Below, one piece after another: positions 40,301-43,300 of a stretch of DNA of 64,000 bases. Made by a program: the position numbers. The DNA is from Escherichia coli (GTDB lineage Bacteria > Pseudomonadota > Gammaproteobacteria > Enterobacterales > Enterobacteriaceae), in the NCBI RefSeq assembly GCF_044324875.1, contig NZ_CP172185.1; one strand, given 5' to 3'. Numbering within the stretch: the stretch's first letter is position 1; each line of letters begins with the position of its first letter.

Positions 40301-43300
40301 AACTGAAATTGCTGCCTGCAAACACAGTAGCCCCAGACGTAAGGATGACAGCATTAATCACCGTATCCATACGGCGGTTAAACACCTCCGAAATATGTTC
40401 AATCCAGTAACTGTTCCAGAGACGAAACATGACCTCGTGTCGCCGTTCGGCATGATTTTCAGTTGGTTGTCTGTTCATTGCGGTTTAACCCTCCTCATCA
40501 TCTCGCCCCTGCCCTTTTTCAGGCGCGGGAGCCGGTTGCCGTGGCACATGAAATTTATCGCTATCAGACATTTATTTTTTCCCGTGTGTTGTTGAACAAA
40601 GTGCCCGCACAGTTTTGACGGAACGGCGGGCGCTTCAAGCGTAACACACCCTTCTTTTCCGGTTGAAGGCGAAAAAAACCGGACAGCTACCCGACACAAA
40701 CCAGACCAGCGGAGAACTGCCATGTACGCACTTAAACCTATGGGGATACCAGGCAAAGCCCCGGCGCATGTGAAAGCCTGGACACAGCAGGAAGATGATT
40801 TGCTGATCACCCTGTACCCGCAGCACACAGCACGAGATATCGCCGGACGTCTGGGGCGCAGCTACGAAGGAGTTTGCGGCCGCATTTCTCGTCTGCGTGA
40901 ACAGGGCAGGATTGGCATCAAGCAGCAAAGACTAAGCGATGAGATGATCGCCACGCTCATCAGGAACCGCCACACCAGGTCCCTCAAGGAACTGGCACAC
41001 ATGGCGAAAGTTTCGACACGCACGGTAACCAACCGATTGAGGGCGCTGGGCTACAGCCTGATCAAATGCGGGGATCTGCATAAAAACACCGTCTACAGCG
41101 ACCGCATCGTTGAGATTATCAGACAGTTACACGACGAGGAGGGCCTGACGTTCAGGGAAATCGCACAGCGCCTTAGCCACGAACTACAGCCGAACCCTAC
41201 CCCGACACTGGCTCAACGTCTCTACTGGCGGTGCACAGCATCCGACGCCGTATTCCGTGAACTGTTACCAGATTGAGCAATCACCATGTACACACAAAAA
41301 AACCGCTTGCAACAACAAACCGGAACAGGGTACGCTTCCCCCGCACCTCATAAAGCGGGTGCCGGGTTTCGCAGCCTGCTGACTAGCAAAGCGCACAACC
41401 GCGCCAGCGGTTTTTTTGTGCGTACTGTATTGCCACGTCTTTTTCGCACACGAATTATGGCGGGGCGTACGGGGCCGACTTCGGTCGGGCCGGGTTCTTT
41501 GCTAGCCGGTACTGCGAACCTCGTACGTCTCGCCACCCACAGTTTCGCAGCTCTGGATGGTGAGTTTTTAAAACTTACTAGCAAAGAGGCCACACCATGG
41601 CAAACCGCAAACAGCGCCGCGCTACTGCGGAGCATCACCACGTCCGCGCCCAAATCGACAAACGCCTTTTCCGCGCATCACGCGTTGCACGCATCATGCA
41701 CATCAACATGCTGCATGAACGCAGAGGGGCACTACCGAACACCTATATCGCCTCCGTTTTCAGCTATCTGGCGGACGATCTCGCCGAGCTGCAACGCCTC
41801 ATTAACCAGCACTGATAAACATCCCGAAGCCATCCTGCGCCCGTTCGCGGGAGGCTTCCACACATCTGTAGTCGGGAGGATTGCGCCATGATTCTGGCTG
41901 ACGATTTTCTGGAGTACCTGAACAACACCGAGCGCGACCTGTACGCGCGCGTTCTCACCCGTTACGAGAAATACAAACTTTCACTGCCAGAGCATCAACT
42001 CCGCGAAGGCGATATCGACATTGAAGGGCGCTACATCGTCAGGCGCCGCATAGCGGGCTACGGCATCTGGCGTGTCACCGGACGTGAGCATTCATTGCTG
42101 ACCATCTGCCAGAGTCCGTCCGGCGTGATAACGGAGATCGTCGCCGATAGTCTGCGACTCACCCATCACAGCGCCACCCCGGAAGAAACGCTGGCAGAAA
42201 CCCAGCGTCTGTGTCGCGTCATTGCCAACGCCGCCCTCCGCGCAGACAGGAGGTAAGCGATGGAGTTCGTCAGAGACTGGCAAAAACCGCGCCCCGCTAT
42301 CGGGCGCGAAGGCTTACCCGTACCTGAAACCGCACTGGATACCATCCTGAAGTGTTACCGCGCAGACGAAGAGCGCGCACTGCACGCTGAAGAGCAGGGT
42401 CATCCGCTTGCGGGCACAACCATCGGTAACGCGATCGACAAGTGGGAAGGCGCACAGGAGCGCCAGGAAGAGGCCATCACGCTCACACAGGAAGCGAGAA
42501 GACACCCGCCCACCCTTATTGAGGAAACCCTCAAAGAGCTGGACACCCTGCCCAAGTGGTTGAGGCTGCCGCTGATTAAGCACCTGAACTTTTTAAGGCG
42601 CAAACAGGAGGACGAACAGCAGAAAGGCAAGCGCGGCAAGGACACCCGCAAATATGAGCGCTTCCTGAAAAACGGCATCCCCGCACGTCTTCGCCGTATT
42701 CGTGAGATTAACGCTCGCTTTGCACCGTTAAGTTTTCAGGCCGCTGCCATGCGCGAGAGTCTGGAAGAACTGATCACACTGCCGAACCTGAGCCGTGAAC
42801 GCATCCAGAAAATAGCCGTACTGCTTGCCAGCGCCGTTAAAATGCATCTTGCCGACGCAATGGACAAGGCCCGCGAAATAACAGGGAACGACAAAGACGA
42901 CAACCTGAACAACTGGCTGATTGCCTACCAGTATATTGGTCGCCGTGTCCTGAAGCTGGGGATCACCCCACCATACTGGAGCGCCCTTGAACTCCGCCCC
43001 GACCGCAGAAGCCCCCCGGACGTGACACTGGTTCCGGGCGCTGTTTTGCGCCTGAACGACGCCGAATGGTGGAATAAAAAACTTCGCCAGATGCACGACG
43101 TCTGGCGTGAGGAACTTTTACGTGCAGCGGGCCTTGTATCCCGCCAGACCTCCGTTTATGTGAGCCGTGAAGCGCTGGCAGACTTCCGCGAAAAACAGGC
43201 CCGTACCCGCGATTTTCTCAAAGCGCACGACGTGGAGAACGAAGACGGCGAACGCATCAGTCTGGAAGATATCTACTACGCCAGTACATCCAACCCGCAT

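Follow-up and report, generated by a model that had tools for sequence, protein, structure and literature searches.

A probable RNA immunity and anti-repressor control cassette upstream of the epsilon-like and replication genes of a P88-like prophage in Escherichia coli

What function is carried by a conserved piece of phage DNA that seems to be empty of genes? This question is raised by positions 41277-41596 of a stretch of 64,000 nucleotides of the Escherichia coli chromosome (contig NZ_CP172185.1 of assembly GCF_044324875.1; the whole stretch is called the window below). The region belongs to a P2-family prophage (P88 / Xuanwuvirus type), whose integration site is beside glsA/ybaT. A first-pass annotation, made from the sequence alone, had described these 320 bp as non-coding, had noted a terminator-like hairpin, a UUCG hairpin and three copies of a 10-mer, and had suggested either a small structured RNA or a set of protein-binding sites. 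We conclude that the region probably constitutes an RNA-based immunity and anti-repressor control cassette of the prophage, homologous to the seqA-CI RNA-seqC region of P4 and to the a1b1-c4-a2b2 arrangement of immI in P1 and P7. In the records that were inspected for a near-identical E. coli prophage, for P88 and for P4 no RNA feature is annotated.

The identity of the element became apparent from a scan of the whole window with the Rfam models at their gathering thresholds, in which isrK and C4 appeared as two adjacent matches on the + strand. The idea of a small structured RNA was thus correct as to the structure and incorrect as to the number, for the region contains two RNAs, each a member of a known family (isrK, RF01394, and C4, RF01695). 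The downstream one, at 41453-41540, is an antisense RNA of the C4/CI type and is composed of the following parts:

41453-41540, + strand: C4 antisense RNA (RF01695), score 82.8 bits (gathering threshold 45), matched over its full length (model positions 1-87)
41458-41474 with 41519-41535, + strand: closing stem of C4, 17 bp
41475-41488, + strand: UUCG hairpin of C4, enclosed by the closing stem
41489-41510, + strand: second hairpin of C4, with a 12-nt loop
41497-41505, + strand: b', CUUUGCUAG, within that 12-nt loop
41512-41518, + strand: a', CUGCGAA, in the single-stranded junction of C4

The minimum-free-energy fold of this segment (-47.7 kcal/mol, z = -4.8) agrees with the Rfam structure. 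Moreover, when that structure was applied to 29 distinct sequences, P4 included, all 27 pairs were formed in each of them (100% of the cells paired; slid controls reached 33-45%). A compensatory change was observed in 10 of the 27 pairs, a number that was equalled in none of 500 shuffles. The UUCG hairpin of the first-pass annotation is present as CCGAC-UUCG-GUCGG at 41475-41488. The longer string given for it, GGCCGACTTCGGTCGGGCC, starts at 41473 and not at 41472, and its trailing GCC is part of the next helix. The combination of an isrK and a C4 match was also found with Rfam in P88 and in P4; in P4 the C4 match falls at the position where we take the CI RNA to map, and the isrK match where seqA presumably lies.

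To follow the element beyond the window we used 80 IMG/VR loci, collected in a scan with an alignment of the epsilon-like protein that is encoded directly downstream, which represent 56 distinct sequences and are referred to as the relatives. The whole region is present in all 80 of these epsilon-encoding loci, at 82-92% nucleotide identity. In P88 the similarity extends from 41285 to 41952.

The upstream RNA, at 41343-41417, can be classified from its sequence as an IsrK-type leader RNA, the predicted equivalent of the c4-a1b1 motif and of the seqA region of P4. Its parts, including the candidate promoter, are:

41307-41336, + strand: putative promoter, with -35 TTGCAA (41307-41312), an 18-nt spacer and -10 TACGCT (41331-41336)
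41343-41417, + strand: isrK (RF01394), score 64.7 bits (gathering threshold 50)
41343-41362, + strand: first hairpin of IsrK
41366-41375, + strand: 10-mer in the second hairpin of IsrK, with a1 in the loop (pairing core UUCGCAG, 41368-41374)
41382-41391, + strand: b1, a single-stranded 10-mer with core CUAGCAAAG at 41383-41391
41397-41417, + strand: intrinsic terminator of IsrK, found in the terminator scan, nearly invariant in the relatives, equivalent of t1

The IsrK layout of two 5' hairpins, a single-stranded b1 linker and a Rho-independent terminator emerges from the Rfam alignment together with the terminator scan, and P88 and P4 have the same isrK match at the same position. The terminator-like hairpin that had been noticed earlier was confirmed as AACCGC-GCCA-GCGGTT followed by T7 (41397-41417). 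The c4-a1b1 model (RF03163) scores 23.3 bits at 41330-41382, which is below its gathering score of 46.7, and membership therefore rests on the isrK model. In the same way, since the fold of the single sequence is not better than that of shuffles (z = -0.18), the support for the IsrK structure is provided by the family model.

An RNA of the isrK type is expected to bind Hfq and to possess its own promoter directly ahead of it. The sequence at 41307-41336 has the appearance of a constitutive promoter that would be equivalent to PLE of P4 and PisrK of Gifsy-1, with a transcript start near 41343. It was not reported by a consensus scan, and the -10 hexamer of the window, TACGCT, is weak. Among the 56 distinct relatives the two hexamers are conserved (TTGCCA in 54 and TACATT in 52) and the 18-nt spacer occurs in 15 variants; the same layout is found directly upstream of the isrK match in P4. 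The window shares its divergent version, TTGCAA/TACGCT with a unique spacer, with a 98%-identical prophage (L001), and expression of the module may be weaker here. Another candidate, TTGCCA-17-AATTAT at 41430-41458, was considered as a promoter for C4 itself and rejected: the start would fall inside the closing stem, the -35 reads TCGCCA in 23 of the 56 relatives, and AATTAT belongs to the consensus of the C4 family.

Downstream of C4, the stretch 41542-41589 is the equivalent of a2/b2 in P1 and of seqC in P4, and it runs into the start of the first gene:

41542-41551, + strand: a2, GTTTCGCAGC, core at 41544-41550
41577-41586, + strand: b2, ACTAGCAAAG
41578-41587, + strand: predicted b':b2 duplex of 10 bp (b2 plus its 3' neighbour), covering the first four bases of the Shine-Dalgarno
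41584-41589, + strand: Shine-Dalgarno AAGAGG of the 72-residue gene, 7 nt before the ATG at 41597
41597-41815, + strand: epsilon-like gene, 72 residues, its start predicted to be controlled by b2

On the basis of sequence comparison the product of this gene is a homologue of the helper-derepression protein epsilon of P4, and as such a predicted anti-repressor. It matches Pfam family PF25738 'Derepression' (E 4.7e-6) and aligns with P4 epsilon in a pairwise BLASTP comparison (30% identity, E 1e-8), PHROG 3688 is hit reciprocally by the 72-residue protein (E 2e-32) and by P4 epsilon (phrog_3688, E 7.6e-9), and the orthologue is named 'derepression protein' by the Prokaryotic Genome Annotation Pipeline (PGAP). 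The arrangement expected of the C4 family, in which the target beyond the RNA includes the ribosome-binding site at the head of an anti-repressor operon, is seen here with a gene of the Derepression/epsilon family. NCBIfam gave no match for the four neighbouring proteins.

The repeats that had first attracted attention fit this division of the region. A pattern search found ACTAGCAAAG exactly at 41382-41391 and at 41577-41586, that is at b1 and b2, so that both direct copies of the 10-mer stand as described. The third, inverted copy at 41497-41506 (GCTAGCAAAG, minus strand) agrees in only nine of ten positions, and exact complementarity to the 10-mer is limited to CTTTGCTAG at 41497-41505, which is b'. 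A second repeat family had been overlooked: GTTTCGCAGC occurs at 41366-41375 and again at 41542-41551, and CTGCGAA at 41512-41518 complements part of it. Across the 64-kb window as a whole the 10-mer shows no enrichment (4 matches with at most one mismatch, 2.25 expected). A direct 10-mer repeat together with its inverted 9-mer copy was obtained in 0.015% of 20,000 mononucleotide shuffles of the 320-nt region; the actual region holds two direct 10-mer repeats. The resulting helices in the window comprise 9 bp for b':b1, 10 bp for b':b2, and 7 bp each for a':a1 and a':a2.

A comparison of the 56 distinct sequences revealed that the scaffold is almost invariant and that the variation is focused in six patches, namely a1, b1, b', a', a2 and b2. 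In total 15 classes of b' and 7 classes of a' were distinguished, which occur in 24 combinations. Despite this diversity, complementarity within the locus (at least 7 nt, with G·U allowed) is kept almost without exception: it was found in 55 of the 56 sequences for b':b1, in 54 for a':a1, and in all 56 for both b':b2 and a':a2. Between classes the mean complementarity amounts to 4.7-6.0 nt. For the 16 distinct b triples, pairing in register consists of 273 Watson-Crick pairs out of 288, 6 G·U pairs and 9 mismatches, four of which come from a single locus, L007. The complementarity of the a and b patches extends to more distant phages. In P88, b' CUGUAGUUG is complementary to b1 CAACUACAG; in P4, seqB CCUGUGAA is complementary to UUCACAGG, and UUCUCAC to GUGAGAA; and the lambdoid phages Stx2a_WGPS2 and mEp460 follow the same a/b pairing logic. 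We also observed that GUGGAAA, the a' of the P88 class, and UUUCCAC, the a' of the Stx2a_WGPS2/mEp460 class, are exact complements, so that a' in one phage corresponds to a1 in the other. This could be due to chance, or could provide a route for cross-talk between co-resident prophages.

These patterns bear directly on the other suggestion made for the repeats, according to which they are DNA operators bound by the 184-residue helix-turn-helix (HTH) protein encoded upstream, or by some other phage regulator. Three copies of 9-10 nucleotides in a space of 205 bp, one of them inverted with respect to the other two, would suit such a role, and all three co-vary between phages as the sites of one protein also would. 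However, the differences between the copies are mostly transitions compatible with G·U pairing (L010, L031, L042), which preserve pairing of the RNA and not identity of the DNA, and therefore favour RNA-RNA pairing over identical DNA sites. Moreover, the inverted copy falls in a hairpin loop of a conserved RNA whose stems covary, and a second, independent set of repeats (a) obeys the same RNA logic. The HTH gene itself lies outside the conserved module, because the similarity to P88 starts at 41285 and the gene upstream, which varies between phages, is in P88 a lipoprotein/protease gene. Finally, 15 x 7 specificity classes would need equally many co-evolving proteins, none of which is linked to the module; identical DNA sites tied to a co-inherited regulator gene were not found. 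We consider the operator explanation most improbable.

The placement of the element ahead of the A-proximal genes, as given in the first-pass annotation, proved correct. It precedes the epsilon homologue and two further genes:

41888-42256, + strand: ORF (open reading frame) of 122 residues, PHROG 3237
42260-44749, + strand: P2-type replication endonuclease A, PHROG 91 'nicking at origin of replication' (E 2e-221), 'replication endonuclease' according to PGAP

The gap between the last two is 3 nt, and both would presumably be subject to a polar effect of the switch.

On the basis of the sequence and of the homologous systems the following mechanism can be proposed. A constitutive promoter near 41307-41336 would initiate at about 41343, and most transcripts would end at the IsrK terminator (41397-41417) to give a leader RNA of about 75 nt. 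Transcripts that read through would carry the C4-like RNA (41453-41540), to be excised from the precursor; RNase P is the processing enzyme for the P1 and P4 equivalents. The C4 RNA would display b' in its hairpin loop and a' in the adjoining junction, and these two would pair with a2/b2, on the same or on another transcript, and thereby mask the Shine-Dalgarno of the epsilon-like gene. Once translation of that gene is blocked, polarity would silence the 122-residue ORF and replication gene A. In addition, pairing of C4 with a1/b1, beside the IsrK terminator, would reinforce termination, by which C4 would regulate its own synthesis. The specificity, and with that the immunity class, would be defined by the 9-nt b and the 7-8-nt a sequences. 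In P4 a CI-dependent terminator, t1, is situated between the promoter and the RNA, and further terminators (t4 and the Rho-dependent timm) follow the RNA; the other corresponding details of that system are eta/kil, processing by RNase P and the binding between epsilon and C. For the related systems it has been described that c4 RNA, which pairs around the ribosome-binding site, blocks the synthesis of an anti-repressor and determines the heteroimmunity of P1 and P7 (PMC12197685), and that the CI RNA of P4 pairs with seqA and seqC to cause premature termination (PMC4825925). In line with the proposal, the prophage also encodes a P2 C-type repressor (37428-37727, - strand).

Several points weigh against this proposal. 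For this phage group, promoter activity, transcription through the terminator, cleavage by RNase P and a polar effect on gene A are all deduced from sequence and homology. In Gifsy-1, which has the same architecture, the outcome that was shown is activation by the short IsrK and not simple repression (PMC4825925). Single mismatches between b2 and b' occur in some of the classes. In locus L007 (IMGVR_UViG_3300029738_000139) the a1/b1 of IsrK are of one class and C4 and a2/b2 of another, and therefore either the upstream pairing is dispensable or L007 is a recent recombinant; it has the appearance of a natural chimera with a foreign IsrK, in which the recombination point lies between IsrK and C4 and the a1/b1 pairing is lost. 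Finally, no conserved intrinsic terminator was found between C4 and the epsilon-like gene when the relatives were compared, and the U-run at 41565-41569 is not conserved in them, so that a site like t4 of P4 is not evident. A conserved a2 hairpin was sought in the same interval, where the fold is no better than that of shuffles (z = -0.7).

The precedent of Gifsy-1 suggests that the switch might also work in the positive direction. In that case the short IsrK, through a1/b1, would act in trans as a decoy of the C4 segment of the long transcript or of free C4, a2/b2 would be freed, and translation of the epsilon-like gene would be turned on; the ratio of IsrK to C4 would then decide on induction. 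This extends the repression model and does not exclude it. The parts are the same as in isrK-orf45(STnc1160)-anrP, where mutations and their compensatory counterparts demonstrated this mechanism (PMC4825925). Moreover, in the fold of the 268-nt transcript the cis partner of b' is b2 in the minimum-free-energy structure and b1 in the centroid, and these alternatives resemble structures A and B of Gifsy-1, which makes a positive decoy role of IsrK a live and non-exclusive rival. The non-matching IsrK of the recombinant L007 argues against it, as does the finding that the net genetic effect of the homologous RNA in P1 and P4 is repression (PMC4825925, PMC12197685). We regard an activating role of this kind as possible for the prophage, and as a minority option.

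A long reading frame crosses the entire element:

41286-41891, + strand: eta-like read-through ORF, 201 residues, spanning the promoter, IsrK, C4 and, in another frame, the entire epsilon-like gene

The statement of the first-pass annotation that no credible ORF spans the region is doubtful and was probably made too quickly, as this frame is open in the great majority of 81 related loci. The stop codon TGA shares bases with the start codon of the following gene (ATGA, 41888-41891), and P88 has an ORF of 206 residues with the same ATGA junction (L002, 4968-5588). P4 has, in the corresponding frame with respect to IsrK and C4, an ORF of 214 residues (L003, 4813-4169, - strand), which we take to be eta, and in lambdoid phages this frame forms the 5' part of 383-residue 'antirepressor' ORFs that begin at the end of cII (L084, 2144-3295). 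Compared with P4 and the lambdoids the ATG of the epsilon-like gene is shifted by one base, which puts epsilon and the read-through ORF in different frames. The read-through frame contains no stops in 46 distinct epsilon-like genes, and the other alternative frame contains 2-5. The openness of the frame is nonetheless only suggestive, because 12-65% of the synonymous shuffles are also without stops (p 0.12-0.65).

Could the region then be mainly protein-coding, with a real protein of 201 residues and with repeats that reflect peptide motifs or the constraints of overlapping genes? The openness in most relatives, the ATGA end on the next gene and the frame shared with the P4 and lambdoid ORFs would be in line with this, and the translation of 41286-41600 matches PHROGs 995, 821 and 6928, annotated as 'transcriptional regulator/repressor', with E down to 1e-16. 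These matches, however, probably reflect gene callers that translate the conserved RNA region, and phage protein databases thus seem to hold families that are built partly on it. The old 'cI 137 aa' ORF of P4 is probably an example of such a protein call. The signals at the level of the RNA (the Rfam scores, the compensatory pairs and the G·U-tolerant complementarity of the patches) are much stronger, the encoded amino acids change freely at the a/b patches, and the synonymous-shuffle test is not significant. In P4, eta is reportedly important through the act of its translation, which is said to prevent termination, and not through the protein product. A mainly protein-coding function is therefore very unlikely in our judgement. 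In combination with the RNA switch, a role like that of eta is plausible on the present analysis, in that translation from transcripts of the early operon would override the switch. In the P88 record a hypothetical coding sequence, gp13 (L002, 5033-5221, - strand), is annotated antisense to IsrK and C4, and is likely a spurious gene call.

The closest parallel to the cassette is the immunity region of P4 (and of retronphage phiR73), in which the order of the parts, PLE - seqA/t1 - CI RNA with seqB - seqC - kil/eta - epsilon - ... - alpha, is the same. Besides the Rfam matches and the promoter layout, P4 and the window have in common an intrinsic terminator between promoter and RNA, a b2/seqC element that overlaps the Shine-Dalgarno of the first translated gene (kil in P4), an epsilon homologue followed by a replication gene, and a long ORF in the same frame through the whole region. 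The differences are equally clear. The host of the element in the window is a full P2-family phage and not a satellite; kil is absent, and the epsilon-like gene itself, out of frame with the eta-like ORF, occupies the start controlled by b2. The spacer between IsrK and C4 measures 35 nt, whereas it is 107 nt in P4; the 122-residue ORF has no similarity to orf151 of P4; and the replication gene encodes the A nickase instead of the alpha primase-helicase.

In the immI region of P1 and P7 the c4 antisense RNA reportedly acts on the targets a1/b1 and a2/b2 and controls icd-ant. Like the window, this system has a two-element (a, b) code that is present twice on one transcript, an anti-repressor as the regulated function, and a b2 that lies over the ribosome-binding site of a first gene of about 72 residues; Icd of P1 has 73. 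The protein in the window is of the epsilon type and not Icd/Ant, the upstream element fits isrK and not c4-a1b1 (23.3 bits against the gathering score of 46.7), and the phage family and the position differ, as the cassette of the window is placed inside the early operon, upstream of a replication gene. Class-specific pairing in P1 and P7 gives heteroimmunity (PMC12197685). The c4 and c4-a1b1 motifs were defined by Weinberg et al. 2010, with P1 listed as a member of c4-a1b1.

The isrK-orf45(STnc1160)-anrP locus of Gifsy-1 in Salmonella likewise combines an RNA of the isrK family with a C4-like RNA, which in Gifsy-1 is processed, and an anti-repressor gene. IsrK has been described as a structural homologue of SeqA, and STnc1160, located downstream of IsrK, as a processed RNA (PMC4825925); both are highly transcribed in Gifsy-1 lysogens (PMC7067206). 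The ORF across the C4 segment is translated in Gifsy-1, and the open frame of the window may be translated as well. The anti-repressor is AnrP/Rha-like in the former and epsilon-like in the latter. Activation by the short IsrK has been shown for Gifsy-1 only. The Stx phages and mEp460 have 70-73% nucleotide similarity to the window from IsrK through the Shine-Dalgarno. In the lambdoid phages, as in the window and P4, there is a b2-type overlap, in their case at an internal start of the anti-repressor; unlike in the window, the read-through ORF is there in frame with the anti-repressor.

The RNA families and the class of mechanism are thus already known from P1/P7, P4/phiR73 and Gifsy-1. In the literature searched we found no description of C4 or IsrK in P88-like or P2-family phages, an absence that is not proof of novelty. 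The points for which that literature gave no description are the location of the cassette inside a P2-family early operon, the direct gating of an epsilon homologue and of A, and the diverse, freely combining a/b classes. The identification accounts for 320 bp that are conserved, though seemingly 'empty', in a prophage group common in E. coli. It predicts a second, RNA-based layer of immunity in these P2-family prophages, placed over an epsilon-type anti-repressor and the replication gene, and it connects a lineage of helper-type phages by descent with the immunity/derepression cassette of P4. Moreover, the relatives represent a natural panel of matched loop and target variants, which could serve in tests or in the design of orthogonal RNA repressors. 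Part of the query was matched in 1152 of 5426 complete genomes. Many E. coli genomes have 2-4 matching places (e.g. NZ_CP135671.1, with 4); several C4 cassettes therefore often reside in one cell, and the diversity of the a/b classes is functionally relevant.

A wider and rather speculative picture, to which we give a low probability as a whole, would be that P88-like helper-type phages carry, within the early operon, the RNA-immunity and epsilon cassette of the satellite P4, and that a and b constitute a two-part RNA 'address code' whose parts recombine freely (at least 15 x 7 classes, 24 combinations, one IsrK/C4 chimera). Such a code could connect the helpers, satellites and lambdoid prophages of one cell in a network of cross-immunity or cross-induction. 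The eta-like ORF would then be a translational bypass that lets the transcripts of the early operon reach A while they ignore C4 and skip epsilon.

The early operon of the prophage is on the + strand; besides it and the portal gene, the following genes of the prophage were noted:

36345-37388, - strand: integrase
37428-37727, - strand: C-type repressor, 99 residues, of the P2 C type
46086-46460, - strand: HTH regulator adjoining the RelE-like toxin
46534-46806, - strand: RelE-like toxin, PHROG 1213

The last two (46086-46806, - strand) look like a toxin-antitoxin moron between gene A and the portal gene, and compared with prophage L001 about 430 bp are absent from the window around this pair. 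In the host part of the window, and unrelated to the switch, Rfam recognized naRNA4 (CssrE), a nucleoid-associated non-coding RNA derived from repetitive extragenic palindromic (REP) sequences, at 4306-4383 (+ strand) with 66.2 bits against a gathering score of 59.5.

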